DNA from: Phycisphaerae bacterium
GTDB lineage: Bacteria; Planctomycetota; Phycisphaerae; UBA1845; Fen-1342
Direction of reading: 5' to 3'
Assembly: GCA_963675745.2 (NCBI GenBank)
Contig: CAXXWX010000012.1
Coordinates: 18,969-82,968, forward strand
Length of the DNA stretch: 64,000 nt
Part shown: positions 7,558 to 33,048 of the stretch, one piece after another
How the letters are laid out: each line of letters begins with the position of its first letter
How positions within the stretch are numbered: position 1 is the stretch's first letter
Notes under the pieces: model-generated
Database searches by the model: none
Told to the model about the DNA's origin: nothing
The model's input: only the letters and a program-made list of their open reading frames with translations
Translations under genes and position numbers: made by a program

Positions 7558-7598
7558 CGTCGCGGACAACTCATGCCGCCCAGATGGTGAGGTTACCC

Positions 7599-9953
7599 AT
7601 GTACACGCTTCTGATCTGCTGTTTCTGCGCTGGATTCGCGGGAGCCGACGCAAAGCCGCAGTGGATTGCGCCGGAGATGGCGCCCGCAACCACGCCGCCA
7701 CGACCTTGTCCGCTGCTGCGCCACGTGTTCACGCTGACCGACACGCCGGTCGGCGCCACGGTGCGTGTCATCGGGCTCGGGCACTACGAGTTGCGTCTTA
7801 ACGGCCAAGTCGTCGGTGACACGGTCGTCAACCAGGCCTGGTCGCAGTATGACAAGACGCTGTATTGGCGGGAATTCGACATCACGTCGCTGCTGAAAAC
7901 CGGGGAGAACGTCTGTGGTGTGGTGCTGGGTAATTCGTTCTGGCAGGTGGCGCCGGCCAACGACGCCGGGCGGTTCGTGAAGACCGACGCGATGCCGGAT
8001 TTCTCGGGCGGGCATCCGTACCTGCTGTGGTTGGAGGCGCGCATTCGAAACGCCGACGGCGAGGAGACCGTTATCCGGAGTGACTCCGCGTGGCGCTGGA
8101 CGGACGGGCCGCTGACCTTCTCACACATCTACGCGGGCGAAGATTATGACGCCCGGCTTGCGCCAACCGGTTGGGACAAGGCTGGATTCGACGACAGCGC
8201 GTGGCAGCCGGCACAGATCGTCGAAGCGCCGCCGGCGGCAATGCTGGCGCTGAGCAGCCCGGGTCTGAAGACGGCCGAGGTGTTCAAGCCGACAGAAATC
8301 CGCGAACCCGAGGCCGGCATCTTCACGTACGTCTTTCCGCAGAACTGTTCGGCTCTGCTGCGCTTTACGGTGCGCGGCGCGCGGGGCAGCACGATTCGCT
8401 TCAAACCCTGCGAGTACATGGACGACGCCGGCCGCGTGCGTTTCACGTACACCTGGGGCACGGGCAAGGACATCTGGCACGACTACACGCTGCGCGGCGG
8501 TGATGATGAATCGCACCAGACGGTCTTCTGCTATGTCGGCTGCCAATACGTCGAGGTGACCGGCGCCGTGCCGCGCGGGCATGCAAACCCGGACAGCCTG
8601 CCGGTCGTGGCGCAACTGGAGCTCGTACACGTCCGCGCGGCCAACCGGGTCGCCGGTTCATTCTCGTGCTCCAGCGAGTTGCAGAATCGCATCCACCATA
8701 TCATCGACTGGTCCATCCGTTCGAACATGAGCCATGTCCCGACCGACTGCCCCCACCGCGAGAAGAATGGCTGGCAGGAGCAGACGTGGCACATGGCGCG
8801 CTCCGTCGGCTACCTGTACGACGTGCACGACTGGTATCGCAAGATCGCCCGTGACCTGCGCGACACGCAGCTTCCCGATGGGCACATACCGACCAATTGT
8901 CCGAACTACCTGGTCGGGATTCCGCCGCACGGCTTCTGGAACGAGGCGCCGGAGTGGGGCGTTGCCGGCGTGCTGGCGCCGTGGCATCTATACGAGTGGT
9001 ACGGCGACCGTGAAGCGCTGGCCGCCGGTTATGACAGTATGAAGGCGTTTGTCGACTACCTGACATCGCAGGCCAAGGACGGCGTGATCAAGAGCAACCT
9101 CGGCGACTGGTATGACTGCGGCCACGACAAGGGCGACGGTCCGTCGCAATGGACGCCGCTGGAGGTGAGCGCCACGGCGGTCTGGGCGCTGGGGGCATCG
9201 ACAGTGGCGCGCGCGGCGGCGGTGCTGGATCGTCCCGCCGACGCGGCGCGCTATCGCGCATTGTTCGAGAAGATCCGGGCCACGTTCCAGCAGCGCTTCT
9301 GGGACAGCGCGAGCAAGACCGTCAAGAACAACGGCTCGTGCCAGGCGGGAAACGCGGCGGCTTTGTGCATCGATCTTGTGCCGACGGCGGACCGTGCCGC
9401 GGCGGTTGAACGCATTGTTGACGATCTTGCACGCCGTAAGTGGCAGCAGACAACCGGTGAGGTGCTGCACGTGTTTCTGATTCGCGCACTGGCGGATGCC
9501 GGGCGAACAGACGCGCTGCACAAGGTATATGCCCGCACGGAACGTGGCAGCTACGGCTACATGGTCGAAAGCGGTCTCACGACGCTGCCTGAGAGCTGGA
9601 ACGCGCAGCCCGGCACCGGCAACAGCCTGAATCACTTCATGCTTGGCCACCTGGTCGAGTGGCATTTCGCGTACGTCGCCGGAATACGGCAGCAGCCGGG
9701 CGGTGTCGGCTGGCGCAAGATTGTCATTGAGCCGCACCCCGGGCCGCTGACGCACGCCCAGGCGTCGTTCGACAGCCCCGCCGGGCACATCGCCGGCCAG
9801 TGGCGCCGCGCTGACGGCGTCTTTGAACTGACTGTTGAGATCCCGAATGGTGTGGACGCGCTGGCTGTGCTGCCGGACGGATCGCGGCACAAGTTGCCAC
9901 CAGGATCGACGAAGCTGCATTGCCCGGATGTTGAGCCGTCACCCGGCGGCTGA
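7599..9953 (+). CDS. alpha-L-rhamnosidase (GH78)
   Basis: GLGHYELRLNG, IYAGEDYDAR, PTDCPHREKNGW, LGDW, TTLPESW and SLNHFMLG motifs. Confidence 0.9.
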   Translation: MYTLLICCFCAGFAGADAKPQWIAPEMAPATTPPRPCPLLRHVFTLTDTPVGATVRVIGLGHYELRLNGQVVGDTVVNQAWSQYDKTLYWREFDITSLLKTGENVCGVVLGNSFWQVAPANDAGRFVKTDAMPDFSGGHPYLLWLEARIRNADGEETVIRSDSAWRWTDGPLTFSHIYAGEDYDARLAPTGWDKAGFDDSAWQPAQIVEAPPAAMLALSSPGLKTAEVFKPTEIREPEAGIFTYVFPQNCSALLRFTVRGARGSTIRFKPCEYMDDAGRVRFTYTWGTGKDIWHDYTLRGGDDESHQTVFCYVGCQYVEVTGAVPRGHANPDSLPVVAQLELVHVRAANRVAGSFSCSSELQNRIHHIIDWSIRSNMSHVPTDCPHREKNGWQEQTWHMARSVGYLYDVHDWYRKIARDLRDTQLPDGHIPTNCPNYLVGIPPHGFWNEAPEWGVAGVLAPWHLYEWYGDREALAAGYDSMKAFVDYLTSQAKDGVIKSNLGDWYDCGHDKGDGPSQWTPLEVSATAVWALGASTVARAAAVLDRPADAARYRALFEKIRATFQQRFWDSASKTVKNNGSCQAGNAAALCIDLVPTADRAAAVERIVDDLARRKWQQTTGEVLHVFLIRALADAGRTDALHKVYARTERGSYGYMVESGLTTLPESWNAQPGTGNSLNHFMLGHLVEWHFAYVAGIRQQPGGVGWRKIVIEPHPGPLTHAQASFDSPAGHIAGQWRRADGVFELTVEIPNGVDALAVLPDGSRHKLPPGSTKLHCPDVEPSPGG

Positions 9954-14877: not shown

Positions 14878-16329
14878 TCACCTGCGGGCACCGTTGCCCC
14901 GAACGGATTGCCCCCGGCGCAAGCGGCGGAACGCCTCGGTGACGAGCTTGCGCGTGTGCCGGTGGTCCACGATCGGGCGGGGATACTCGATGCCTTTCGA
15001 AGGTCGCTCGGGGAGTTGATGGAGCTGGTCGGCGGTCAATCCCGCCAGCTCGGGGACAAACCGTCGGGTGAAGTCACCCTCCGGGTCGTAGCGGCGGCTC
15101 TGGCTGGAGGGGTTGAACACGCGGAAGTAGGGTGCCGCGTCGGTGCCGGTCGAGGCCGACCATTGCCAGCCGCCGTTGTTGCTGGCGAAATCGCCGTCCA
15201 CCAGGTGCCGCATGAAGTGCCGTTCGCCCAAGCGCCAGTCGATGAACAGATCCTTGGTAAGGAACATCGCGGCGATCATCCGCAGCCGGTTGTGCATCCA
15301 ACCGGTCTGGGCCAGTTGCCGCATCCCGGCATCCACAATCGGGTACCCGGTCCGTCCCGCGCACCAGGCGGCGAAGTGCTCGTCGTCGTAACGCCACGGC
15401 AGACCGTCCGTTTCCGTTTTGAAGGGCCGGCCCATGCACACGCGGGGAAAGCCGATCAGTACGTGCCGGTAGAACTCGCGCCAAGCCAGCTCGCTGATCC
15501 AGGTTGTCATGCCCTGCTGGCCCGAGTCGAGCCGGCCGTGGTTGGCGTCGAGGGCTGCGCGCAGGCATTGTCTGGGCGACAACACACCGGCGGCCAGGTA
15601 GGGCGAGAGTGTGCTGGTGCCGTCAACACCCGGATAATCGCGGGCCACGTGATAGTCGCCGATTCTCCGCGAGACGAAGGCCGTGAGTCGCTTGCGGGCC
15701 ACCGCCTCGCCTGCCGGCCACAGGTCGGCACGACGCTGACCGGTGAACCCCCTGAGTCTGGCTGGAACGGCGTCGGGTTTGATCCCGAGATCCTGTCGGC
15801 GGCGCGGCGTCGGCCGGAGTGGCGGTGTTCCTCCTTCGTTCAGGACCTCACACCACTTGCGTCTGAATGGCGTGAACACCGTGTACCAGCCGCCGGCCTT
15901 GGTGCGCAAGCTACCGACGTTAACAATGATCTGGTCGGTGAATGCGTGAACGCTCCGGCCGCACTTCTCAAACAAGGTTGTGGCCGCGCGGTCACGTTGC
16001 AGCTCGTTGACCTCATACTCCCTGTTGAAGTACAGGGCTTCGCAAGCGTGTCGTCTGGCGAGGTTGAGGAGCTTGCTCGGAACCTCGTCGAAACGATCGG
16101 CCCGGATGAGTCGGAGAGGGATGTTGAGTTCAGCAAGGGCCTTTGACAACGCGCTGACGCTGCGCAGCACGAAGTCCACCTTCATACAACCCCAGTCGTG
16201 ATCGGCCCACTGCGCGGGGCAGATCGCGAAGACGGCGATGACACCCTCATTCGCGGCCTTGCAGGCATGGTGCAGAGCCGTATTGTCCCGCACGCGCAAG
16301 TCAGATCGAAACCACATCAGGGCCCGCAT
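14878..16329 (-). CDS. phrB: deoxyribodipyrimidine photolyase (class I CPD type)
   Basis: WFRSDLRVRDN, GTSTLSPYL, ELAWREFY, TGYPIVDAGMRQL, GWMHNRLRM, NNGGWQW and FRVFNP motifs. Confidence 0.95.
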   Translation of the reverse strand: MRALMWFRSDLRVRDNTALHHACKAANEGVIAVFAICPAQWADHDWGCMKVDFVLRSVSALSKALAELNIPLRLIRADRFDEVPSKLLNLARRHACEALYFNREYEVNELQRDRAATTLFEKCGRSVHAFTDQIIVNVGSLRTKAGGWYTVFTPFRRKWCEVLNEGGTPPLRPTPRRRQDLGIKPDAVPARLRGFTGQRRADLWPAGEAVARKRLTAFVSRRIGDYHVARDYPGVDGTSTLSPYLAAGVLSPRQCLRAALDANHGRLDSGQQGMTTWISELAWREFYRHVLIGFPRVCMGRPFKTETDGLPWRYDDEHFAAWCAGRTGYPIVDAGMRQLAQTGWMHNRLRMIAAMFLTKDLFIDWRLGERHFMRHLVDGDFASNNGGWQWSASTGTDAAPYFRVFNPSSQSRRYDPEGDFTRRFVPELAGLTADQLHQLPERPSKGIEYPRPIVDHRHTRKLVTEAFRRLRRGQSVRGNGARR

Positions 16330-16461: not shown

Positions 16462-17781
16462 TTATTCAACCTCGGGCAGCGTCGCGCCGGTGGCGACGCC
16501 GAGAAGCCCGCAAACTGACAACAGCAGGATAATCCCCGCGGGCGTGATGATGATGCTGAGCGGGGCCAGCACCGCGGTCATGAGCAGGATGACGCCGATC
16601 ACCGTGTTGCTGACCGCCACGTAGTCGGTGCGGCGGTTGCCGCCGGCCATGTCCACGACGTATGTTTTGCGTCCGAGCCGCACACCGCTGTGGGCGATCC
16701 CCAACAGGAAGAACGCCGCGGGGTAGGTCCAGACGGAATCGCGCAGCGGAGAATCAAAGGTGGCAACCGCGGCGACCACCAGCCCGACGACGGCCGCCCA
16801 CGCCGACGCGACCAACAGCACGCGCCGGCTGGAAACGTCGGCCCAGATGCCCCAGAACGAGGCGCTGAGGCTCGCGGCCAGCGCGTTGGCCAGCACAAAC
16901 CAGCCGAGCGAGGCAAGGTCAAGTCCATGCCGCTGCTGAGCAAGCACCACGTAGTACGGAGCTGACAAGGCGGAACAGAGCAGCAGGGCGCGGGTAATGA
17001 CGAACCTGCGGAACTGGCGATCGGTTCGCAAGAGGTCCAGCCGTTTGAGCGCCTCGGAGAATGCGTTGCCGCCGCCTGCGGTTTCGCCGGCGAACTCCCT
17101 GATGTTGCCGTACACCAGCGCCGCCAGGAACCACAGGGCGGCCGCCGTGCTGAGCAGGGTGAAGTAGAACATCGGCGAGTCGGAGCCGGGCGCGCGCGTT
17201 CCCAGATAAAGTCCGAGCAGAATCGCCGCCAGTCCCGAGATGGTCGCCCCCAGTCCGCTGACCCGACCGCGGCGCGTCTTCGGGATTGTCTTGCCGAGCA
17301 CGTCTTTGGAGGCAACCGAGTTCAGCCCGCGCGAGAGACTGAACACCGCCAGCAGCAGGACGATTAGCCAACCCGCCGTCGCCCCCGTCGAGACGGCCGC
17401 GACCACGCCGATGCCCAGTACAGCCAGCGCCTGGAGCACGCTGCCGATTACCCAGACCGTCTTTCGCTTGGGCATGCGGCGGACAAAGCTGGCGATAAAC
17501 AGTTGAGGGACCAGTGACCCGGATTCTCGAAGGGGCACCAGGAATGCAACCAGCGCGCTCGGCGCTCCGACAAAGCCCAGCAGCCAGGTCAGCACGGTTT
17601 TGGGGTTCGCCAGATGATCTCCCAGGTTGCTCAACGTCTGGCAGATGGCGATGAGATAGAAGTTGCGCGGTACGTACCGGCAAGCGTCCTCCGAGATATC
17701 CGTGCAGACCCGGGCGTCTTCCTCACTGGCAATCGCCTCGTAGGTCCGATCACGCCGGCTTGGTCCAGTTGCTAGTTCCAT
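16462..17781 (-). CDS. MFS transporter
   Basis: About 12 hydrophobic segments; KDVLGKTIPKTRRG and RLGRKTYVVDMA motifs. Confidence 0.85.
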   Translation of the reverse strand: MELATGPSRRDRTYEAIASEEDARVCTDISEDACRYVPRNFYLIAICQTLSNLGDHLANPKTVLTWLLGFVGAPSALVAFLVPLRESGSLVPQLFIASFVRRMPKRKTVWVIGSVLQALAVLGIGVVAAVSTGATAGWLIVLLLAVFSLSRGLNSVASKDVLGKTIPKTRRGRVSGLGATISGLAAILLGLYLGTRAPGSDSPMFYFTLLSTAAALWFLAALVYGNIREFAGETAGGGNAFSEALKRLDLLRTDRQFRRFVITRALLLCSALSAPYYVVLAQQRHGLDLASLGWFVLANALAASLSASFWGIWADVSSRRVLLVASAWAAVVGLVVAAVATFDSPLRDSVWTYPAAFFLLGIAHSGVRLGRKTYVVDMAGGNRRTDYVAVSNTVIGVILLMTAVLAPLSIIITPAGIILLLSVCGLLGVATGATLPEVE

Positions 17782-19288
17782 CGATCATCTCGCAGAGTGA
17801 CAACCAGCCGACTTTTCGGCAGCGCGGCGAATTCCCTCTGAGCATGCCTTCGAACACAAGACCGTGCATCGGCATCACGGCGTACCAATACGCCAAACCC
17901 ATCAGCCCCCGCGGCTTGAAGCGCGCCGTTTGCGTCAGCCTGCACGCTTCGGTGTCACGCTCATCAGGGCATATCTCGAAACTTAGCAGCGCCTCGCCGG
18001 GCAGTTTCATCTCGGCCCGTAGTTCGAGGCGCCGACCGGGCTCAACTCCGGTCACGCGCCAGAAATCCAGCGCCTCGCCGTACCAGAGTCGTTCAGAGTC
18101 GCGCCGGCCGCGGCGCAGGCCCGGGCCGCCAACGAGTCGGTCGATCCAGCCGCGCAGGCGCCACAACCAATCGGCCGCGTAGTAGCCGTGATCGCCTCCG
18201 ATTCTGGACACGGTGCAGTATACGTCCTCCGGTCGCGCATTCACGCCGGTTGAGCGACGGTCGACAAAGACCGTACCGCCCGACCAGTCGGGATCGCCGG
18301 ACATCGGTCCCGCGTCGGACCACGCCGTCTCGATGTGGTGGGCGCGCGTATTGCCCAGAGCGGCGTCGATAGCTTCGCGGATCGTCAGCAGGCGTTGCGG
18401 CATCAGACGAACCGCCGAATCATCCCGGCAGACCACGCGATTGCGCAGACCCTCTGCCAGCGGGCGCGCGATCCGATGGCTGATCGGCGTCACCAGGTGG
18501 ATCCAGAGCGAGCTTAGTCGCGGCGTCAGGACCGGCACCGGGATAATGACGCGCCGGCGCACGCCGAGTGCCTGGGCCATGACCTGCATGATCTCGCGGT
18601 AGGTCATCACTTCGGCGCCGCCGATGTCAATGGTGTTGCCCACGGTGTCCGGGCAATTCAGGCAGGCAACCAGGTAGTGCAGGACATTCTGAATCGCGAT
18701 CGGTTGTGACGCGGTGCTGACCCAGCGGGGCGTTATCATCACGGGCAGCCGTTCCACCAGGTATCGCAGAATTTCGAACGAGGCCGAACCGGAGCCGATG
18801 ATCATCGCCGCGCGCAAGACCGTTACCGGCACCGGCCCCGACGCCAGCGCGTTTTCGACCTCGCGCCGAGAGGCAAGATGTTCGCTGAGTCCCTGACCAG
18901 TCTCGCCCAGCCCGCCGAGGTAGATGATGCGATCCAGGCGCGCTTTCGCCGCAGCCTCAGCGAATGTCGTCGCCAACCTGCGGTCGTGTTCACGATAATT
19001 ATGGCCGGCGGCCATCATCGAGTGGACCAGGTAGTACGCCGCACCGCATCCTGTCATAGCCTCGGCGAGCGCTTGCCGATCGCTGACATCGCAGCGCACT
19101 ACCTCGACGTTGGTGTCGCCAATCCACTCGCGCGAATCCAGCTTACGCGGCTCGCGTGCCAGGCAACGGACGCGATGCCCGGCCGCCAGCAGCCGCGCGA
19201 CAAGTCGTCCGCCGATGTAGCCGCTGGCACCGGTCACAAGGACCGGCCTCTGTCCACGATCGGCGTTCGCATCGGCGTTTGTCATCAT
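17750..19288 (-). CDS. YbjT-like atypical SDR / NAD(P)-binding protein with DUF2867 C-terminal domain
   Basis: VLVTGASGYIGG, YYLVHSM, HLASRREVE, GSGSASFE, LDFWRV, AEMKLPG. A probable 1-nt insertion near 17833 gives a corrected end GMLRGIRRAAEKSAGCHSAR* with the stop at 17785. Confidence 0.88.
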   Translation of the reverse strand: MMTNADANADRGQRPVLVTGASGYIGGRLVARLLAAGHRVRCLAREPRKLDSREWIGDTNVEVVRCDVSDRQALAEAMTGCGAAYYLVHSMMAAGHNYREHDRRLATTFAEAAAKARLDRIIYLGGLGETGQGLSEHLASRREVENALASGPVPVTVLRAAMIIGSGSASFEILRYLVERLPVMITPRWVSTASQPIAIQNVLHYLVACLNCPDTVGNTIDIGGAEVMTYREIMQVMAQALGVRRRVIIPVPVLTPRLSSLWIHLVTPISHRIARPLAEGLRNRVVCRDDSAVRLMPQRLLTIREAIDAALGNTRAHHIETAWSDAGPMSGDPDWSGGTVFVDRRSTGVNARPEDVYCTVSRIGGDHGYYAADWLWRLRGWIDRLVGGPGLRRGRRDSERLWYGEALDFWRVTGVEPGRRLELRAEMKLPGEALLSFEICPDERDTEACRLTQTARFKPRGLMGLAYWYAVMPMHGLVFEGMLRGNSPRCRKVGWLSLCEMIDGTSNWTKPA

Positions 19289-19417
19289 GCGTTTGATCCC
19301 GGCCGCCTGGGCGGGACAGCGTGTCAGAAGAGCCAAGTTCCCTGCTGGTCTGATTGCGCGGCAGCCATTGCTCGTCTCGACGCATCCATGCCGCGTTTGA
19401 AGGCTATTCCAAGGGCA

Positions 19418-20341
19418 TCAAGCGGATGCGGGGGGGCTGTTTGTGATCACTACGTTCCGGCGCCGGCCGCCAAAAAGCCGGTTCTGCAGCGCCGTCCATA
19501 GCGCGGAACTCCCGAGGTTGTCGACAAACTCGAGCATCAGGATGCTCACGTCGTCGTGCTGTAGCCGGGGGTCGTTCGAGTGCTGGCGCAGCTCTTCAAT
19601 GATCGCCGGCACCAGGACCTGGGGCGCACGATCGGGCGTGGCCTTCAGGATATCGGCGAGACGCCTTCGACCGAACAACTCGCCAGTCTTGTCGGGGACC
19701 TCCAGGACTCCATCCGTGATTATGAGTATCCGATCGCCGAATGCCGCGCGCCGCACGCATCGCGTGTAGCGTGTTCGCGGGTCGGCGGCCAGGACGATAT
19801 CGAACAGTCCTTTCCGCGGGACAGGTTCGAGTAGTGACCAGCATCGCGCCGCCGCCTCGTAGTACCAGGCCGGCTCATGTCCGGCGTAGCTGATCGACAT
19901 TCGTCGAGTGGGCGGGAAGTACGTGAGCGCGGCGGCCGTCGTGAATGACCCGTTGTCGAGTTTCGACAGGCGGAGATTCAATTGTCGCAGGACCTTGCGT
20001 TCGTCCATGCGGTTTACGGAGCGCCGCAGCAGATCGTGCATGGTCTGGCTGATGACGGCCACGCTCTCGCCGTGTCCGGTGACATCTGCAAGGCACGCCC
20101 GTGAGATCAGGCCCGAGCCACAGACGGAGAGATAGTGTACGTCGCCGCCCCGCGCACCCTCACAGGACTGCGAGAACAGCACGCCGCGCAGGCCGGGCAG
20201 TTCGATCGGGCCGTCGAAAGTCTGGTTGCCGCCCCAGACTTCGTTGCAGACGAGCCCCACCGATTCACCACCCATTTGCAAGGGGCCGCCGACTGGCACA
20301 GTCGCTTTACCTGGGTCGGGAGCTTCGCTCATTTGAGCCAT
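19418..20341 (-). CDS. stand-alone PP2C/SpoIIE-family Ser/Thr phosphatase
   Basis: GGDVHY, LADVTGHG, YAGHEP, ITDGVLE and DDVSIL metal-binding motifs; no N-terminal sensor domain. Confidence 0.88.
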   Translation of the reverse strand: MAQMSEAPDPGKATVPVGGPLQMGGESVGLVCNEVWGGNQTFDGPIELPGLRGVLFSQSCEGARGGDVHYLSVCGSGLISRACLADVTGHGESVAVISQTMHDLLRRSVNRMDERKVLRQLNLRLSKLDNGSFTTAAALTYFPPTRRMSISYAGHEPAWYYEAAARCWSLLEPVPRKGLFDIVLAADPRTRYTRCVRRAAFGDRILIITDGVLEVPDKTGELFGRRRLADILKATPDRAPQVLVPAIIEELRQHSNDPRLQHDDVSILMLEFVDNLGSSALWTALQNRLFGGRRRNVVITNSPPASA

Positions 20342-20563: not shown

Positions 20564-20590
20564 TTCGCCCGGGCGATGACTCTGGATTCA
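20564..20590 (-). promoter_or_regulatory. putative SigK-type ECF promoter, copy 1 (drives PP2C-SDR-MFS-phrB)
   Basis: Minus strand reads TGAATCC-agagtcatcgcccgg(15)-GCGAA with an A/T tract upstream; same motif and spacing as 24641 and 27508. Confidence 0.72.
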
Positions 20591-21203: not shown

Positions 21204-23999
21204 ATGCAGAAGTCGCGCAAGTTGTGGCCGTGGGTGTGGGTCGCCGCGTTGGGCGGCGTTGTTTGTGCTGTGGCGTGGGCCGGGAATATTCGCCATGACG
21301 ACATCGACGGCGATCCCGATAACGATCCGGACTTCAATGAGTTCTACAACTTGGCCGCCGATCGTGACTTCGATGCTGCCGGGGCCGTTGTGTCCGAGAC
21401 CGACGGCCAGGCGACACTCCTCGCTGGGTCTGGCACGCTCATTCAGCCGGAATGGGTGCTGACCGCAGCCCACGTGGCAAACGGGCTGAGCCTGAATACC
21501 GCATTCTCGCTTGGGGGGACAACATTCCAAGATGGAATGTTGTACGAGGTCTCCGGCTATATTCTGCCCCCGACTTATGATCCCAGCGGCGCTGGGTGCC
21601 CCGTGGGCCCAAGCGGCCCCACCACCGGCTGCCACGGAGATGACATTGCGCTCCTCCGACTGCGGCAGGTTGTGAGTGGGGTCGCTCCGGCGACCCTTCC
21701 CACATGGCCTGCAACTGGGCTGCTAGACTACACCGTGACGATCACCGGCCTCGGCGACCGCGGAACGGGTTTGAATCCCAACACCTTGGTCAGCGGAACG
21801 AGGATCGCGGGCACGAACACAATTGACGCCCGCGGTAGCGATGTTGGCGGTATCGATCCCAACGTGGCTGGCTGGTCATCGAACATCTTTGTAGTCGACT
21901 TTGACGACCCCAACGGCGTTTTTCCGAACCGTTGTGGCTCGTCAACGCCGGTGAGCTACGAGTACCTGTCGGCGAGGGGTGACAGTGGCGGTGGCTGGTA
22001 CTGCCGCTACTACGACAACGGCTGGAAACTGGAACTGGTTGCTGTGACGTCTTTCGAGTACGGCCCCCAGGGATCAGTTCCTCACGGCGGCTACGGCTGT
22101 CTCGCCTTGGGCACGTCAGTGCCAGCTCACAGGGATTCGTGGATCAGTCCACTGCTCGGGGAGGATCTCGAGTGGAAGTGGGTCGGCGGCTCTGGATCCG
22201 ATTACGATGATCGGCTGAACTGGAACGTCTCCCTTGCTGATCCCAACTTGGGGACATTCGTGGTCCTACGACTGCCGGGCGAACCAGACAGCATCGTCTT
22301 CGACCGGCCCGAAGCGTACACGGTCTCGCTGCCAAGCGCTGCCATGGTTAGGGAGATGAGCATTGAGGGTGGCAGTGACGTCACGCTCGATGGCACGTTC
22401 GGCTACACGATCACTGACTTGGCAGCCCTGTCCAACGGCGGCGTTCTTCATCTCGATGCAGGAGCGACGATCAATGCGGGCGAGCTGCGCGTCGGCGAGT
22501 ATGGGGTCGGCACTTTGAGCCAGAGCGGTGGAATCGTCACGATTGAGAATAGCCTCCACATCGGCGTCAATTGCGGAGCCGACGGGACGTACAACCTTGC
22601 CGGCGGAACCCTGGTCGCTGACACGATCAACATCGCATTCAACGGCCAAGGAGAGCTGAACTGGACAGACGGGACAATTCTGCCCTTCACTCCCGGCGGC
22701 ACCGTCACGGTCAACGTCTGGTCACCCAACGGCAGCGTCAACATCGCCGATGGACTGACCTTCGACGGCGTCGTGAACGAGCTGTCGGCGGAAGATGTCG
22801 ATAGTGACGGCGTGATCGACGATTGCGACGAGTGCCCGGATACGCTTCCAGGCGTCGCAGTCGACGAGGTCGGATGCCCGCCGCCCACCCCCGGCGATGC
22901 GGACCAGGACGGTGACATCGACCTGCGCGATATCCAGCAGTTCCAGCAGTGCTTCGATACCGATCCATCGGGCGGGTGCCCGGATGCCGTCGATGTCGAC
23001 GGCGACGGTGACGTGGATCTGGATGATTGGGACGAGCTGGCCCCGATTATCGAAGGTCCGGGCAGCCAAGCGCCGCCTGCCAATATGGTCTTGGTCCCTG
23101 GTGGTTCATTCCTGATGGGCGATAGCTTCGACGACGAGGGCCACGATGATGAGCTGCCGGTCCATGCGGTCTATCTGAGCCCGTACTACATCGGCACTTG
23201 CGAGGTGACCAATCAGCAATACTGTGACGGGCTGAATTGGGCCTACGGTCAAGGGCTGATCCAGAATCCGGATCTTCACGGCGGTGTGGTGTATAAGATC
23301 GGGGGAACGAGCACGTGCTATTGCGACACGACGAGTTCGTCTTCGTACAGCCGGGTCACATGGAACGACAGCAGCTTCGGTGTGGTTGCGGGCGAGGAGA
23401 ACCACCCTGTGGTGATGGTGACCTGGTACGGTGCGGCGGCGTACTGCAACTGGCGCAGCAGCATGGAAGACCGCACGTCGTGCTACGACACGAGCACATG
23501 GACGTGTAACTTCGGCGCGACCGGCTACCGTTTGTCGACTGAGGCCGAGTGGGAGAAGGCAGCCCGGGGCGGACTAAGCGGGCAGCGCTTCCCGTGGGGC
23601 GACATCATCAACCATAGCCGCGCCAACTACAGAGCCTGTGGCGCCTGTGCCTACCCGTATGACGATAGCCCGTACACGAGTTACACGTTTCATCCCGATT
23701 TCGACGACGGCGAGTATCCGTACACCGGCCCGGTGGGGTATTTCCCCCCGAATGGCTACGGCGTGTACGACGCGTCCGGCAACATCTGGGAGTGGTGTAA
23801 TGACTGGTTCTTGAGTACATACTACGCGGGCTCGCCGAGTTCGAACCCGACCGGTCCCACGGGTGGGTCACGCCGCATTCTGCGCGGCGGCAGTTGGATC
23901 GACGTCGCAAGGGAATGCCGCGTGGCAGACCGCGGTAATTACCCGCCCGACGAACGCTACAACTACCTCGGGTTTCGCTGCGTGGTGGGTAATCCGTGA
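21204..23999 (+). CDS. secreted multidomain protein: trypsin-like serine protease + beta-rich repeats + Ca-binding/dockerin-like repeats + FGE-sulfatase (SUMF1) domain
   Basis: Catalytic triad VLTAAHV / DIALLRL / GDSGGG; DSDGVIDDCDECP and GDADQDGDIDLRD repeats; FGE motifs FLMG, EVTNQQY, RLSTEAEWEKAARGG, GNIWEW, RGGSW, GFRC. Confidence 0.85.
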   Translation: MQKSRKLWPWVWVAALGGVVCAVAWAGNIRHDDIDGDPDNDPDFNEFYNLAADRDFDAAGAVVSETDGQATLLAGSGTLIQPEWVLTAAHVANGLSLNTAFSLGGTTFQDGMLYEVSGYILPPTYDPSGAGCPVGPSGPTTGCHGDDIALLRLRQVVSGVAPATLPTWPATGLLDYTVTITGLGDRGTGLNPNTLVSGTRIAGTNTIDARGSDVGGIDPNVAGWSSNIFVVDFDDPNGVFPNRCGSSTPVSYEYLSARGDSGGGWYCRYYDNGWKLELVAVTSFEYGPQGSVPHGGYGCLALGTSVPAHRDSWISPLLGEDLEWKWVGGSGSDYDDRLNWNVSLADPNLGTFVVLRLPGEPDSIVFDRPEAYTVSLPSAAMVREMSIEGGSDVTLDGTFGYTITDLAALSNGGVLHLDAGATINAGELRVGEYGVGTLSQSGGIVTIENSLHIGVNCGADGTYNLAGGTLVADTINIAFNGQGELNWTDGTILPFTPGGTVTVNVWSPNGSVNIADGLTFDGVVNELSAEDVDSDGVIDDCDECPDTLPGVAVDEVGCPPPTPGDADQDGDIDLRDIQQFQQCFDTDPSGGCPDAVDVDGDGDVDLDDWDELAPIIEGPGSQAPPANMVLVPGGSFLMGDSFDDEGHDDELPVHAVYLSPYYIGTCEVTNQQYCDGLNWAYGQGLIQNPDLHGGVVYKIGGTSTCYCDTTSSSSYSRVTWNDSSFGVVAGEENHPVVMVTWYGAAAYCNWRSSMEDRTSCYDTSTWTCNFGATGYRLSTEAEWEKAARGGLSGQRFPWGDIINHSRANYRACGACAYPYDDSPYTSYTFHPDFDDGEYPYTGPVGYFPPNGYGVYDASGNIWEWCNDWFLSTYYAGSPSSNPTGPTGGSRRILRGGSWIDVARECRVADRGNYPPDERYNYLGFRCVVGNP

Positions 24000-24043: not shown

Positions 24044-24478
24044 TCATCGACGATAGGAGCCCCTCCCGTAGCCAGCCCGTGCTGGGGCATAGCTCCCGTA
24101 ACGTCGTCCAGCGTGGACGATCTTCTCAGCCACGTGTCGGGGCCACGATCTGCCTTGAAGGTCTCGCGGATACAAAAACAGCGCGCGGGCCCCGTTGTTA
24201 CTGTACGCCTGCTGCTTATGGCGTACGCCGTCCATGTACGTCGGTCGGTCGGGCATGCCGGTGTACTCGACGATCAGATTGCCGTATGTCGGCAACGTGA
24301 AGTCTGGGTGCCACACGCGAAACCTCCCACGATCATAGATCACCGTAGGCATTTCGTAGAAGAAGGGAATTCCGTACCGGCCCAGCAGCCGTCCGACCTG
24401 CGCCTCTCCGCGGGAGCGGTATGGCGGCTCGTCCGGTCCCAGGCGGTCCTCAAGCCGCACCTTGGGTGGATAGTCCAC
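24044..24478 (-). CDS. hypothetical protein, PD-(D/E)xK nuclease-like, mobile-element associated
   Basis: SRGEAQVGRLL, FFYE and WHPDFTLP..IVEYTG pattern resemble the restriction-endonuclease-like fold. Confidence 0.55.
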   Translation of the reverse strand: MDYPPKVRLEDRLGPDEPPYRSRGEAQVGRLLGRYGIPFFYEMPTVIYDRGRFRVWHPDFTLPTYGNLIVEYTGMPDRPTYMDGVRHKQQAYSNNGARALFLYPRDLQGRSWPRHVAEKIVHAGRRYGSYAPARAGYGRGSYRR

Positions 24479-24640: not shown

Positions 24641-24667
24641 TGAATCCAATCGACGCTGCGCGACGAA
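24641..24667 (+). promoter_or_regulatory. putative SigK-type ECF promoter, copy 2 (drives lipocalin-sigma-antisigma-B12 protein)
   Basis: TGAATCC-aatcgacgctgcgcg(15)-ACGAA, preceded by a T tract, 43 bp upstream of the lipocalin ATG. Confidence 0.78.
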
Positions 24668-24710: not shown

Positions 24711-25274
24711 ATGTGCAGGAATACACGCCGCTGTGCCACGTTACTGTCGGTTCCGCTGCTAGCGCTCGTAACCGGGGGTTGCCCCGCCATAGATGAGGCG
24801 TTTTACCCACGACTTGAAACCGCTTCCGACGTGGATATCGAGCGTTACGCGGGCAAGTGGTACGAGATCGCCAGATACCCGGCCATTTTCCAGGAGGGTT
24901 GCGTCGATGTAACCGCCGAGTACACCGTGCTCGCGGACGGGGCTGTTCGTGTGGTGAATACATGCGGCTCAACCGACGGGAGTTCACGCGACATCGTCGG
25001 TACGGCGAGAGTGATCGACCCAACCACCAACGCGAAGCTGAGCGTTTCGTTCTTCGGACCGCTGTTTGGCGCTCCGTATTGGATTATTGAACTCGACGAC
25101 GACTATCAGTATGCCGTCGTTGGCAACCCGAGCCGGGAGTTCCTCTGGATTCTCAGCCGCACGCCAGCGCTCGACGACACAACGCTCTCGGGGATCCTCG
25201 GGCGCCTGCCGGATTACGGCTATGACCCGGACAGGCTCATCTGGACAGTCCAGAGCGAAGCCATGACTCCGTAG
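24711..25274 (+). CDS. blc: lipocalin family lipoprotein (Blc-like)
   Basis: Lipobox GGC; DIERYAGKWYEIARYP, TAEY, YWIIELDDDYQYAVVG and LWILSR motifs; RBS AAGGAG. Confidence 0.9.
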   Translation: MCRNTRRCATLLSVPLLALVTGGCPAIDEAFYPRLETASDVDIERYAGKWYEIARYPAIFQEGCVDVTAEYTVLADGAVRVVNTCGSTDGSSRDIVGTARVIDPTTNAKLSVSFFGPLFGAPYWIIELDDDYQYAVVGNPSREFLWILSRTPALDDTTLSGILGRLPDYGYDPDRLIWTVQSEAMTP

Positions 25275-25483: not shown

Positions 25484-26053
25484 ATGCCGCAAACCTTGCT
25501 CGAACGAGTCGCCTCCGGTGACGTGGCTGCCGTGCAACAGTGCATCGATCGCTACGGCGGGCTGGTCTGGTCGCTGGCGCGGCGGTTGGTGCCCCGCCGG
25601 GCTGACGCGGAAGACGCGGTCCAGGAAGTGTTCATCGCGTTGTGGAAGAGCGCGGAACGGTTCGACCCCGCGGTTGCCGAAGAGACGACATTCGTGGCGA
25701 TGATCGCTCGTCGCCGACTCATCGATCGGCAACGGCGTCTTGCGCGGCGCATCGAAGGTCGGCAGTCGGTGCCGATCGAGGATGTCCAGGTCGCGTCGAC
25801 GGAGTCCGATCAAGACGGTGTGGATGTGTGCGACGAGGCGGCCCGCGCCGCGCAAGCGGTGACTCAGCTACGGCCCGAGCAACAGAAAGTGCTGCGCCTG
25901 GCGGTGTATGATGGTTGGTCGCACCAGCGGATCGCCGACCACTTGCAGATGCCCCTGGGTACCGTGAAGACGCACGTCAGGAGAGGTCTGGTGCGGGTGC
26001 GCGAGCTGCTGACGAGCTCCGGCGCCACGGCCGAACGGGAGGCGACATCATGA
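25484..26053 (+). CDS. ECF RNA polymerase sigma factor (SigK-like)
   Basis: Region 2 DAEDAVQEVFIALWKSAERFDP and IARRRLIDR; region 4 SHQRIADHLQMPLGTVKTHVRRGL. Confidence 0.92.
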   Translation: MPQTLLERVASGDVAAVQQCIDRYGGLVWSLARRLVPRRADAEDAVQEVFIALWKSAERFDPAVAEETTFVAMIARRRLIDRQRRLARRIEGRQSVPIEDVQVASTESDQDGVDVCDEAARAAQAVTQLRPEQQKVLRLAVYDGWSHQRIADHLQMPLGTVKTHVRRGLVRVRELLTSSGATAEREATS

Positions 26054-26295
26054 AGCGCCACCCCGGCCTGCCGCGTGACGAGCACATGCTACAACTCATG
26101 GCGGATCGTGCCACAGAGGGATTATCGCGCTGCGATGCGCTGGAGTTGGACAGGTACATGGCGCAGAACCCCGACGCCGATCGCGACGCGCTCGATTACG
26201 CCGCCGCGGCGGTCTGTCTGGCATTCGGCGCCGGGCGCGGCGAAGCCCTGCCGGATCGTGTACGCGACAGGGTGCTTTCGGCGGCCGCGCCGTAG
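26050..26295 (+). CDS. 81-aa anti-sigma-like protein (N-terminal cytoplasmic part only; no TM or periplasmic domain)
   Basis: ATGA overlap with the sigma stop; helical sequence MKRH..LMADRATEGLS..ELD..EALPDRVRDRVL resembling RskA-type N-terminal domains; stops where the linker/TM would begin. Confidence 0.65.
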   Translation: MKRHPGLPRDEHMLQLMADRATEGLSRCDALELDRYMAQNPDADRDALDYAAAAVCLAFGAGRGEALPDRVRDRVLSAAAP

Positions 26296-26342
26296 TGCCG
26301 GCGGGTTTGCCTCCGCTGTGTTAAAGATGGGTAGGGTGTCCT

Positions 26343-27401
26343 GTGAACGAAACCGCAAAGCAGCTCAGCAACACGATCGAGTCGGTCTCGAAGGCCCTGG
26401 CCGAGTGGACGATAAACCGCCACATCGAGTCAGACCCCGCTCTACCCGAGCGCTACGGCACGACCTGGCGCGCGGACTGGACAGCCAACTTGCAGTCGCG
26501 CCTCGCTTATCTGGCCCAAGCCGTCGCAGTCAGAAGACCCGAGCTCTTTACGCAGATGATGGCCTGGACGGCGGAAGCCGCTCTGGCGCGCAGAGCGAAG
26601 CCTGACGATCTCCTGAACAGCCTGGAGCACATGCGCGACGTGCTCGCCCAGGAACTGCCGCCGCCCGTCGCGAACACCGCGTCGGAGTATGTGGATCAGG
26701 CGCTTACCCGCCTGCGCAGCGCGGAAATTGAGTCCGCGGTGGCACTGAACCCGAGCGAGCCACACGGCAAGCTGTCGCTGCGCTACCTGGAAGCCGCGTT
26801 GGCCGGCGACCGCGGCAAAGCCTGTGGCCTCATTATCGAACAGGCTCAAGCCGGCGTATCGGTGGCCGAGCTCTACGATCGGGTCTTGCTGCCGGCGCTG
26901 TCAGAAGTTGGCCGCATGTGGCACCGCGGCGAGATTTCCGTTGCTGACGAGCATTTCACCACCGCGACGACCCAGGTGCTGCTTGGCGAGCTCCGGTCCT
27001 ATTTCCCGCAGCCCGAACCGCGCTCGGCAACCGTGGTGGCCGCCGCCGTGAGCGGGGATTTTCATGACAACGGTCTGCGTATGGCGGCGGATTGCCTCGA
27101 GATGGACGGCTGGCGCATCCTGTACCTCGGCGCGAACATGCCGGCTGACGACATCGTCGAGTTTCTCGATCAACACGCCGCCGACCTGCTGGCGCTATCG
27201 GTGAGCACATGTCTTCTCGTGTGCCGAGCCGGCGAGCTCATCGAGGTCGTGCGTGCCAATCACTCCAGCGACAAACTGAGGATCATCGTTGGCGGGGCGC
27301 CATTCGACCTGATTCCCGATCTGTGGGAAGAACTTGGGGCGGACGGTTGCGCTCACAACACCACGCAGGCCGTCGAACTGGCGAACAAACTCATTCCGTA
27401 A
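26343..27401 (+). CDS. cobalamin-binding photoreceptor-like protein (globin-like N-domain + B12-binding_2 + B12-binding), no HTH
   Basis: CarH-type W-x9-EH (WHRGEISVADEH), base-off DxHxxG (DFHDNG), YLGANMP, LALS and IIVGGAP motifs; helical N-terminal ~125 aa. Confidence 0.85.
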   Translation: MNETAKQLSNTIESVSKALAEWTINRHIESDPALPERYGTTWRADWTANLQSRLAYLAQAVAVRRPELFTQMMAWTAEAALARRAKPDDLLNSLEHMRDVLAQELPPPVANTASEYVDQALTRLRSAEIESAVALNPSEPHGKLSLRYLEAALAGDRGKACGLIIEQAQAGVSVAELYDRVLLPALSEVGRMWHRGEISVADEHFTTATTQVLLGELRSYFPQPEPRSATVVAAAVSGDFHDNGLRMAADCLEMDGWRILYLGANMPADDIVEFLDQHAADLLALSVSTCLLVCRAGELIEVVRANHSSDKLRIIVGGAPFDLIPDLWEELGADGCAHNTTQAVELANKLIP

Positions 27402-27507: not shown

Positions 27508-27534
27508 TGAATCCATCCGGCCCATCCGTGCGAA
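27508..27534 (+). promoter_or_regulatory. putative SigK-type ECF promoter, copy 3 (drives fasciclin-DUF378)
   Basis: TGAATCC-atccggcccatccgt(15)-GCGAA with a T tract upstream, ~96 bp before the fasciclin ATG. Confidence 0.78.
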
Positions 27535-27630: not shown

Positions 27631-28560
27631 ATGAAAGCCAAGAGATTTCTGAATCGAACCATGCTCGCCACGGCAGCCACGATCCTGATCGCGACGAGTT
27701 CCTACGCCCAGTGCAGCGCCGGCGCGAAGTCCGCAGAAAGCCAACATGACCTTGTCGACACGGCGGTTAACGCCGGCCAGTTCAAGACGCTTGTCGCCGC
27801 CGTCAAGGCCGCCGGGCTGGTGGATGTCCTCAAGAGCGATGGGCCTTTCACTGTTTTCGCTCCGACTGACGAGGCCTTCGCCAGACTGCCGGACGGCACG
27901 CTCGAAAGCCTGCTCAAGCCGGAGAACAAGGACAAGCTGGCCGCGATTCTGACCTATCACGTCGCACCGGGGAAACTCAGCGCGAGTGACGTCACGCGGA
28001 CGAGCGGAGCGGTCTCCGCCAACGGGCAATGGCTCGGATTCAAGTCGAGCGACGGTAAGGTCATGGTGGACAGCGCCACAGTGGTCGCGGCGGACATCAA
28101 GTGCGCAAACGGTGTGATTCACGTGATTGACCGGGTCGTGTTGCCCGAGCAGCAGAACATTGTGCAGGTCGCGGCCGGAGCCAAGACTTTCAACACGCTG
28201 CTGAAGGCCGCGACGAGCGCGGGTCTGGCCGGAGCCCTCCAGTCGGATGGACCATTCACCGTGTTTGCGCCCACCGACGAGGCCTTCGCCAAGCTGCCGG
28301 CTGGAACGCTGGAGAATCTGCTCAAGCCCGAGAACAAGCAGCAGCTCGCGACGATCATCAAGTACCACGTGATTCCGGGCCGCGTTTACTCGCCGGCCGC
28401 GATGAAGGCCAATGACGCCGGCACGCTGGCCGACCAGAACGTACGTTTCACTCGTAAGGACAACGCGCTGTACGTCGACAAGGCCCGCATCGTCGCGACG
28501 GACATCGATGCATCCAACGGCGTGATCCACGTGATCAATGCGGTCATGATCCCCGGCTAA
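27631..28560 (+). CDS. fasciclin (FAS1) domain protein with two tandem domains
   Basis: Signal peptide; two copies each of [14 protein letters not shown] and NGVIHVI. Confidence 0.95.
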
Positions 28561-28617: not shown

Positions 28618-28842
28618 ATGAAGACGATGGATATACTCGCCGCCGTCCTGTTGGTTGTCGGCGGTCTGAACTGGGGTCTCTGGGGTGCGTTTGAGTTCGA
28701 TCTGGTGGCGGCTATCTTCGGTGGCAACACCGCCGTCCTGAGCAAGCTTGTCTATGTTGTCGTTGGCCTGGCGGCCGCCTACCAGGCGTTTGCACTCAAG
28801 GCCATCCAGCGGCGTTGGATCTGCGCTCCCGTCACCGCCTGA
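28618..28842 (+). CDS. DUF378 small membrane protein
   Basis: LLVVGGLNWGL..FDLVAAIFG..VYVVVGLAA; RBS AAGGAG. Confidence 0.9.
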   Translation: MKTMDILAAVLLVVGGLNWGLWGAFEFDLVAAIFGGNTAVLSKLVYVVVGLAAAYQAFALKAIQRRWICAPVTA

Positions 28843-28908
28843 TAGCAGTCAGGAGCACCCGGCAGACTGAGAGCCGACCCGGGAGTATTCGAGTGCGGCT
28901 GGAAGTCA

Positions 28909-28941
28909 AAAACACCCTCGCCCCGGCGGCGAGGGTGTTTT
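28909..28941. terminator. intrinsic terminator-like hairpin
   Basis: Perfect 14-bp stem AAAACACCCTCGCC / GGCGAGGGTGTTTT with a 5-nt loop, downstream of DUF378. Confidence 0.75.
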
Positions 28942-29078
28942 CTGCCTGGGTCGAGTTGGTCGACGTGCCTACCACCAATTGGCAACGCTGGAACCCTGCC
29001 GGTTGCTGTCGTTCGATCCCGGGGGTCGAAACTTCCCGCCGACTCGGCTGCGGGCATAACAAGAGAAAGGTCTGGCAA

Positions 29079-29813
29079 ATGAAACACTCACTCGTATCGA
29101 TAGCATCGGTCTCGGTCCTGATCCTGGCGTTTGCGGCATCGGTTGCGCCAGCAACGCCGGCGGGCGGTGGGAAGTGTGAGCAGATGATTTTCAGCTTTGA
29201 TAGTCCGCAAGATGTGGCGCCCTGGGTGGCTGTCAACGATAATGTGATGGGCGGTGTTTCGGATGGCCGTGTTCGGATGACCGACCATGCGACGCTGGAA
29301 TTCTTCGGCTCAATATCACTGGAGAACAACGGCGGTTTTGCTTCGATCCGTTCCCGCCGTTCTGATGTGGATCTGTCGAGCTTCGATGGCCTGCTAATCC
29401 GCGTGCGCGGCGATGGACAGCGTTACGACTTGAACCTGAGAACGAACGTGCGAATCATGGCCGGCTCATACCGGGCCAAGTTCGAAACGAATGTGGATGC
29501 ATGGCAGGAAGTCTATCTCCCATTTGCTGATTTCGAGCCGACGTCCTTTGGCCGCGTGCGCAGCGACCTGCCCGCACTCGATCCCAGCAAGATCCGCTCG
29601 TTTGGCTTCTTGATTGCGGACAAACAGGCTGGGTCATTCTCGCTTGAAGTCGACTGGATAAAAGCGGTGGTCTCCCCCGACAAACTGGACGCCCAAAGCA
29701 GCGCCGCGCTCCAGCCGGGCGGAGAATCGGCAGTGCGAAACTGGATCAAGTCAGCCATTTCTTACGGCGCGCCGCTGTACAACGCCGCTAGTGAAGTAGC
29801 TTCCGAATTGTAA
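29079..29813 (+). CDS. CIA30 (NDUFAF1-like) family protein, secreted, C-terminal extension apparently truncated
   Basis: WVAVNDNVMGGVS, SLENNGGFASIR, VRGDG and LIADKQAG motifs; signal peptide. Confidence 0.88.
   Translation: MKHSLVSIASVSVLILAFAASVAPATPAGGGKCEQMIFSFDSPQDVAPWVAVNDNVMGGVSDGRVRMTDHATLEFFGSISLENNGGFASIRSRRSDVDLSSFDGLLIRVRGDGQRYDLNLRTNVRIMAGSYRAKFETNVDAWQEVYLPFADFEPTSFGRVRSDLPALDPSKIRSFGFLIADKQAGSFSLEVDWIKAVVSPDKLDAQSSAALQPGGESAVRNWIKSAISYGAPLYNAASEVASEL

Positions 29814-29848: not shown

Positions 29849-33048
<3,200 letters not shown>

Follow-up and report, generated by a model that had tools for sequence, protein, structure and literature searches.

We analysed 64,000 nucleotides of a Phycisphaerae bacterium (Planctomycetota; assembly GCA_963675745.2, contig CAXXWX010000012.1), a stretch referred to below as the window. 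Its plus strand carries three closely spaced genes, coding for an extracytoplasmic function (ECF) sigma factor, a very short anti-sigma protein of the RskA type and a B12-binding protein that we call the sensor. The sigma factor (25484..26053, 189 aa, Pfam Sigma70_r2 and r4_2) is SigK-like and of the ECF18/19 type; its stop codon overlaps the start of the 81-aa open reading frame (ORF) of the mini RskA (26050..26295) in the sequence ATGA, a sign of translational coupling, and 47 bp later follows the sensor ORF (26343..27401, 352 aa, identified by Pfam and structure matches). A first-pass annotation of the window had described this layout, which ORFs and Pfam searches confirmed, and had suggested that the B12 protein frees the sigma factor in light. 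We found the pairing of sensor and sigma factor to be real, conserved and more specific than in that first reading: the sensor is a photoglobin-B12 protein predicted by modelling to clamp the polymerase-binding face of the sigma factor, with RskA eroding alongside. Literature is cited by PubMed Central (PMC) number.

The N-terminal ~130 residues of the sensor, in the place of a helix-turn-helix (HTH) domain, form a photoglobin domain with the phycobiliprotein-type globin fold. In an alignment-based model (predicted local distance difference test score, pLDDT, 94; predicted template modelling score 0.90) residues 1-125 (26343..26717) superposed on allophycocyanin 8OR7 (Z 16.6, root mean square deviation 2.2, 124 residues aligned), and at the sequence level the same domain matched the globin with which the photocobilin SasPcob binds biliverdin (E 0.0094). 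The rest of the protein is a linker and a CarH-type B12 module composed of a four-helix cap and a Rossmann domain (26718..27401; PF02607 at residues 147-217, PF02310 at 230-344). Residues 139-351 superposed on photocobilin 8J2W (Z 26.9, root mean square deviation 1.9, 207 aligned), and the module fold also matched AppA SCHIC (Z 21.5) and AerR (Z 21.2). Folded alone without an alignment, the globin reached a pLDDT of 70 and a best Z of 8.6 with no clear fold match; the alignment-based model was used instead. All four motifs of the photoreceptor signature are present, namely GxxW (G190-W193), EH (E203-H204), GxxH (G238-H241) and GxxxP (G263-P267), a combination described as the signature of light response (PMC11796333). 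The patterns W193-x9-E203-H204 and D239-x-H241-x-x-G244 match as well, and an alignment of 85 homologues, out of 120 among the matches listed, has W193, E203, H204 and H241 in every one of its 85 rows. Pfam found no HTH in the sensor, residues 1-125 modelling as a globin instead, and the NCBIfam CarH model gave 66 bits against a cut-off of 400. Motif positions and Pfam thus bear out the earlier statement that the protein has CarH-type B12 motifs and no HTH; its likening to a bare AerR-like module has to be given up, as the sensor has the composition that defines photoglobin-B12 proteins (a phycocyanin-like globin, B12-binding_2 and B12-binding, in either order), an architecture already described in both domain orders (PMC8717448; PMC10979010). 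By sequence and model we class it as a reverse-order relative of the photocobilins, with the globin first. The JGI name of many matches, methyltransferase corrinoid protein, was rejected in view of the invariant W and EH of the photoreceptor and of corrinoid-model scores far below cut-off.

The photocobilins SasPcob and AbDPcob (PDB 8J2W/8J2X/8J2Y; PMC10979010) and the known photoglobin-B12 proteins (PMC8717448) share with the sensor the same two modules, the B12 motifs and the fold. Apart from the position of the globin, the differences concern the bilin site, for which we derived a numbering offset between SasPcob and the sensor from sequence and structure matches. Trp296 of SasPcob, which contacts both chromophores, corresponds to W75 and is kept in 82 of the 85 rows, whereas the bilin-coordinating Asp270 is replaced by Asn49 in the window sensor and by His, Glu or Asn in most of its group (His 45, Asn 19, Asp 9 and Glu 8 among the 85 rows). 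The Cys46 site holds Trp, so that the window sensor reads Trp46/Asn49 where the bilin signature has Cys/Asp. Among 146 globin-B12 proteins we counted 86 with Trp46, 40 with Cys or Ser46 and 20 with another residue or a gap; Asp49 was found in 5 of the 86 Trp46-type globins versus 36 of the 40 Cys/Ser46 globins, and Cys46 in none of the 52 sigma-linked sensors. Judged by these residues, the sensor group has mostly lost the bilin-binding signature. AbPcob, which has His at the Asp270 site, binds biliverdin weakly (PMC10979010), and by analogy weak binding may still be possible for the window sensor. A search of the 91%-complete genome for a heme oxygenase (PF01126) gave no match. The genome does encode a cobalamin adenosyltransferase and methylmalonyl-CoA mutase, and adenosylcobalamin (AdoCbl) is therefore likely to be available. 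Related proteins were also met in other settings: one 2.7-kb contig (L064) carries two photoglobin-B12-like genes on opposite strands, and an 818-aa frame (L173, genome G899) joins a photoglobin-B12 protein to a putative histidine kinase and receiver, with a frame of similar length in L174 (genome G656). Genomes G899 and G656 both lack the sigma factor.

The sigma family profile found SigK (4NQW) as its best PDB match (E 9.4e-31). The NCBIfam SigK model gave 111 bits, under its cut-off of 226, and the nearest NCBIfam sigma models likewise all stayed below cut-off, the superfamily model excepted. The region-4 cysteine pair of SigK of the M. tuberculosis type is missing (no Cys in residues 123-189), a pair that does not define ECF19 as a whole (PMC7826278).

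Loci of this sigma group were collected via the sensor first and then via the sigma factor as a control, which after deduplication gave 101 loci. A synteny check had been proposed in the first-pass annotation, and the B12 gene proved to be linked to the sigma gene in dozens of loci across Planctomycetota. The sensor is patchily distributed: at E 1e-70 it occurred in 27 of 279 genomes of the order and in 24 of 401 genomes of a phylum sample, and it was found in none of three genomes of the same genus. The sigma factor was also present in 26 of the 27 and 22 of the 24 sensor-positive genomes, a co-occurrence that arises partly by construction, the sigma profile having been built from sensor-linked loci. 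Genomes in which the sensor lies distant from the sigma gene give a less circular comparison: the sigma factor was present in 16 of 16 with a Trp46 globin versus 2 of 6 whose globin was of another type (of 26 among the matches listed, 4 were untypable, and many genomes are kin); four of ten distant sigma genes inspected had no RskA. What is conserved is the pair of sigma factor and sensor; the mini anti-sigma, supposed earlier to complete a conserved triad, is not essential to it, as the sensor also occurs with a full RskA in 28 loci and with none in seven, L163 among them. In another of these RskA-less loci (L188, genome G707; sigma gene 7119-7697, minus strand) the sensor gene starts 4 bases inside the end of the sigma gene, in the usual slot of RskA. 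Five loci of family f21 (L212, L254, L255, L257 and L260) have an orphan sigma gene without RskA followed by a common large, secreted-looking ORF, a putative tricorn-type protease; the sensor is located elsewhere in each genome. The sensor seems split over frames or stops in L166 (G602), L167 (G596), L168 (G522) and L107, as is the sigma gene in L166, owing to assembly error or decay.

Since several loci have no RskA, sensor and sigma factor were chosen for co-folding, each with an alignment of 45 rows and with neither cobalamin nor a sensor dimer. The pair scored 0.62, while the best of three controls scored 0.00; in a benchmark 116 of 157 solved complexes and 2 of 215 mismatched pairs came up to the mark, figures that are only rough for runs with own alignments. 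The runs shared at least 97% of contacts, with partner pLDDT of at least 73. The predicted interface is formed by the globin alone, with residues 4-21 and 104-109 placed on sigma residues 9-21 and 43-57, which we take to be regions 2.1 and 2.2 (Pfam region 2 spans residues 21-89). These regions bind the beta' clamp helices of core RNA polymerase and are the target of helix 4 of class I anti-sigma factors (PMC7406223). The co-fold thus supports, rather than proves, binding of the sensor to sigma regions 2.1-2.2, a position from which the sensor might block holoenzyme formation as an anti-sigma factor. Co-folding had been recommended in the first-pass annotation; the contact predicted here, between sensor and sigma factor on regions 2.1-2.2, fits a direct inhibitor better than a factor acting on the mini RskA. 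At position 18, the closest globin contact, Ala or Gly was counted in 51 of 52 sigma-linked sensors, and in 77 of the 86 Trp46-type versus 13 of the 40 Cys/Ser46 globins, the latter having Arg, Gln, His or Lys at position 15 in 31 of 40. Together with the loss of Asp49, this sequence pattern of the Trp46-type globins fits a globin re-used for protein binding. Inter-protein mutual information was calculated from 45 pairs, in which most contact columns are invariant, and searches of the PDB gave no photoglobin-sigma complex.

The mini RskA has no transmembrane (TM) stretch, as had been stated before: its best 19-residue hydrophobic mean is 0.93, compared with 1.4-1.9 in full-length relatives. 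It aligns with the N-terminal ~80 aa of relatives of 258-277 aa, and RskA_C was over cut-off in both of two relatives scanned. The ORF has no true Pfam match of its own, RskA_N matched weakly in 2 of 29 anti-sigma rows (best E 0.0012), and the anti-sigma profile gave no RskA match in the PDB; a T3SS_HrpK1 match below cut-off was taken as chance. By homology to the N-termini of RskA_C proteins we assign the 81-aa ORF as the cytoplasmic N-terminus of an RskA-type protein. In the 101 loci RskA was full in 67, short (75-106 aa) in 19 and absent in 10, with one TM-less form and four loci cut by contig ends; three of these states were assigned by hand. An RskA with one TM helix directly after the sigma gene (+1) is typical of the group, and the window locus keeps its N-terminal part only. 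The short forms end at differing places and do not form one clade; a single origin was rejected by an approximately unbiased (AU) test (p 6e-49, 24 rows), in which the mini group was set by length and chosen after the sigma-only tree had been viewed, and at least 18 changes of RskA state were placed on the sigma tree. The ratio of nonsynonymous to synonymous substitution rates (dN/dS) was 0.29, 0.26 and 0.37 in three groups of mini forms, with 0.29 for the group of the window, versus 0.28, 0.13 and 0.15 for the same domain in full RskA. The possibility of a one-off broken gene, raised in the first-pass annotation, can be dismissed on this similarity and on the spacing of the genes: in 11 mini loci inspected the sensor starts 7-65 bp past the mini stop, leaving no room for a remnant. 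The mini RskA is under purifying selection, real and functional, and neither new nor essential to the pairing of sensor and sigma factor; a natural RskA of ~81 aa is already published (PMC7509140).

Among the loci scored, RskA was reduced in 26 of 54 that have the sensor and in 4 of 43 that lack it (Fisher p 4.5e-5, kinship ignored; 4 of the 101 loci were left out because of contig ends), and in 4 of 34 when only well-flanked sensor-less loci were counted. Single loci show a variety of RskA forms. A 221-aa RskA (L125, genome G251) has lost the TM segment by an in-frame deletion and keeps both the N-terminal domain and an RskA_C-like part, while degenerate remnants are found in L161 and L183. 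In two sister loci on metagenome contigs (L088 and L104) the sensor is convergent to the sigma-RskA pair, and RskA measures 80 aa in one and 258 aa in the other. L210 (genome G989) has tandem sigma genes, a distant ECF with a long RskA-like gene and then the sigma gene of interest, followed by a mini RskA of 80 aa; 4 kb upstream there is a lone B12 module, and the full sensor is encoded elsewhere in the genome.

The promoter motif named in the first-pass annotation, written here as TGAATCC-N16-CGAA, occurs three times in the window, at 24641 (+), 27508 (+) and 20590 (-), and is strongly conserved in relatives. Across 54 sensor loci it was found 87 times at 16-nt spacing, whereas eight other spacings gave 0-2 sites apiece, and across 46 sensor-less loci 21 times versus 0-3 times; in relatives it often lies ~215 bp upstream of the sigma gene. 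A genome-wide search gave 7 strict sites versus 2-9 at other spacings, hence no enrichment beyond the three clustered ones. Rfam searches near the sigma gene gave no riboswitch match, the leaders upstream of sigma genes are not conserved, and a sigma-70 promoter scan had no matches. The first predicted promoter (24641..24667) precedes blc, which codes for a Blc-type lipocalin lipoprotein (24711..25274, plus strand; Lipocalin_2, E 3.8e-48), and likely also drives sigma factor, mini RskA and sensor by read-through. The second (27508..27534) precedes a gene for a two-domain, MPT70/83-like fasciclin protein (27631..28560, plus strand; Fasciclin, E 2.1e-77), followed on the same strand by DUF378 and CIA30-family genes (28618..29813), which recur near the sigma gene in relatives. 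The third (20564..20590, minus strand) precedes a leftward run of genes for a PP2C/SpoIIE phosphatase (19418-20341), an NAD-binding DUF2867 protein (17750-19336), an MFS transporter (16462-17781), all three assigned by Pfam, and a DNA photolyase (14878..16329; NCBIfam and Pfam), the sole PF00875 match in the genome. All these genes, that of the photolyase included, are predicted members of the local regulon. In relatives the motif stands ahead of genes for GTP cyclohydrolase I, for flavin oxidoreductases and for fatty-acid desaturases (18 of 41 candidate ORFs scanned). In Pseudomonas, light induces photolyase and FolE (PMC9758184), and in Rhodobacter fasciclin and folE2 are up under photo-oxidative stress (PMC7074977).

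Several other genes lie near these. The katG gene for a catalase-peroxidase (30730..33048, plus strand; NCBIfam over cut-off) has no motif of its own, and its membership in the regulon is uncertain. Between the two arms of the regulon we noted a trypsin-like/dockerin-like/FGE-sulfatase fusion gene (21204-23999, plus strand) and a small ORF with a faint endonuclease match (24044-24478, minus strand; E 0.093). A 281-aa protein (29849-30694, plus strand) had no match in Pfam and NCBIfam searches; it recurs near the sigma gene in L119, L120, L159 and L163.

The reading that we favour, and regard as evenly poised between right and wrong, is that the photoglobin-B12 protein binds the SigK-like sigma factor directly and controls a small photo-protection regulon as a soluble anti-sigma factor that lets go in light. 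The AdoCbl-loaded sensor would, in the dark, hold sigma regions 2.1-2.2 with helix A of its globin and thereby block docking to core RNA polymerase. Under green light the Co-C bond would be cleaved, as happens in CarH and the photocobilins, and by the same homology the lit sensor would change its shape or oligomeric state and free the sigma factor. The freed sigma factor would transcribe from TGAATCC-N16-CGAA the genes for lipocalin and fasciclin, the leftward operon with photolyase at its end and, probably, the operon to which it belongs itself, until fresh sensor, newly made and loaded, ends the response. That the sensor binds in the dark and lets go in light we infer from its blocking position together with the protective nature of the regulon. 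A cytoplasmic sensor would make the membrane and periplasmic part of RskA dispensable and so lead to its repeated loss, the retained 81-aa piece being likely a secondary, sensor-less damper. The seven loci with sigma factor and sensor and no RskA, and L188 with its sensor in the anti-sigma slot, support this reading.

Several points weigh against direct inhibition relieved by light. The first concern the co-fold: lacking cobalamin and a sensor dimer it is silent on which light state binds, partners in solved complexes often dock on sigma region 2, and the three controls included neither a Cys46 photoglobin with the window sigma factor nor the sensor with another ECF. As the co-fold fixes no state, the contact could have another input or polarity, the sensor acting as a feedback brake that binds the sigma factor when lit or in its apo form, or reading cobalamin supply, redox or another tetrapyrrole in place of light. 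The probable location of the sensor gene within the operon of its own sigma factor agrees with such a brake, as do the module fold shared with AppA SCHIC and AerR and the photocobilins, in which biliverdin reverses the effect that the dark and light states have on a partner enzyme (PMC10979010). The sensor has kept all four light-response motifs, however, and photolyase and FolE in the predicted regulon would be useful in light, which fits release in light; we therefore consider a different input or polarity unlikely.

A second group of points concerns the mini RskA. Its last helix is conserved (P68 and R72 in at least 90% of 29 rows), and RskA of ~81-86 aa, including the natural ~81-aa forms of Nocardia, inhibits SigK alone (PMC7509140). 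Direct inhibition by the sensor therefore leaves unexplained how the sigma factor escapes from the coupled mini RskA. The mini RskA might accordingly be the true inhibitor and the lit sensor an anti-anti-sigma factor, which frees the sigma factor either through contact with the mini-protein or by displacing helix 4 of the latter from region 2. A truncated RskA that still inhibits calls for such a remover, the mini RskA is coupled to the sigma factor and under purifying selection, and the predicted sensor site overlaps the target region of helix 4. That site is the polymerase-binding face, on the other hand, where the sensor would block rather than free the sigma factor; with seven loci that have sigma factor and sensor and no RskA nearby, and degenerate remnants in L161 and L183, we find this route rather improbable.

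The remaining points concern the association of the sensor with RskA loss. An independent-pairs test of the two was not significant (6 pairs, 2.2 concordant and 0.1 opposite, median p 0.5), pairs at genome level stood at 0.8 versus 1.0, and many of the genomes counted are kin. In two genomes, G934 (84% complete) and G647 (90%), the sigma factor is present and neither RskA nor sensor was detected, and abnormal RskA occurs in 23% of cysteine-less SigK (PMC7509140). It is conceivable from this that the sensor does not regulate the sigma factor directly, being just co-regulated within a SigK-type photo-oxidative cassette or signalling through another partner such as the PP2C, and that RskA truncation is a general drift of cysteine-less SigK, truncated or absent RskA being common where no sensor is known. 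The window regulon does include a SpoIIE/PP2C gene, and photoglobins have been reported beside SpoIIE and STAS (PMC8717448; PMC10979010). Yet a PP2C gene lies near the sigma gene in few related loci, sensor and sigma factor co-occur even when unlinked (16 of 16), and the co-fold passes against its three controls, all of which makes the absence of direct regulation quite doubtful to us.

The nearest known system is LitR-LitS(-LitB) of Streptomyces (ECF19s4; PMC11519972; PMC7826278), in which an AdoCbl photoreceptor controls a sigma factor of the SigK family, a pairing like the one described here. LitR, which carries a MerR HTH, regulates the transcription of litS at the DNA (PMC11519972), whereas the sensor has no HTH and is predicted to act by protein contact; an RskA-type gene lies near LitS-type sigma genes in ~22% of cases (PMC7826278). 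SigK-RskA, with the Nocardia SigK and its 81-aa RskA (PMC7509140), has in common with the window locus the type of sigma factor (SigK being the closest match), the coupled RskA gene, a fasciclin target and a cysteine-less sigma factor with a short, functional RskA. No sensor of these systems is named in the available text, which states the signal to be unknown, while here a B12 sensor travels with the sigma factor. Stand-alone forms of the known photoglobin-B12 proteins act by protein contact (PMC8717448; PMC10979010); their partners in the available parts of the same papers are kinases, cyclases, SpoIIE/STAS and HTH proteins, ECF sigma factors not being named, while the partner predicted here by modelling is an ECF sigma factor. 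AerR/PpaA (PDB 7TE2), with an HTH-less B12 module, also acts by protein contact; its target is the repressor CrtJ and the matched AerR structure has no globin domain, unlike the sensor. Rhodobacter RpoE-ChrR (PMC7074977) pairs an ECF sigma factor for photo-oxidative stress with similar targets (fasciclin RSP_1409 and folE2). ChrR, a class I anti-sigma factor, has a cupin-like domain, and our sensor a globin. Myxococcus CarQ-CarR is likewise a photo-oxidative ECF system. The anti-sigma factors ChrR and CarR respond to singlet oxygen and are not photoreceptors. A literature search, to which subscription papers were largely beyond reach, gave no report in which an ECF sigma factor is bound by a B12 sensor, be it a photoglobin, a photocobilin or another. 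All parts are of known kinds, and the new element is the predicted interface between sensor and sigma factor.

In the literature covered, the routes by which light reaches ECF sigma factors are indirect and run through a DNA-binding B12 repressor (LitR-LitS; PMC11519972) or through photo-oxidative damage sensed by the anti-sigma factor (PMC7074977). It is possible, if somewhat short of probable, that we are dealing with a new structural class of anti-sigma factor, in which a bilin-binding globin has been re-used as a sigma clamp gated by AdoCbl photolysis; this would be a two-protein light switch free of kinases and proteases that is replacing the membrane anti-sigma RskA across Planctomycetota, and a candidate for the signal still sought for SigK-type sigma factors without the cysteines. 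A photoreceptor that is itself the anti-sigma factor would represent both a new wiring and a new anti-sigma fold, and would give stand-alone photoglobin-B12 proteins a concrete target. With two soluble proteins, a defined promoter and predicted contact residues, it would also offer a compact green-light switch for synthetic biology. For SigK-type sigma factors without the sensing part of RskA it would provide a testable signal, a question left by the earlier work on Nocardia (PMC7509140).

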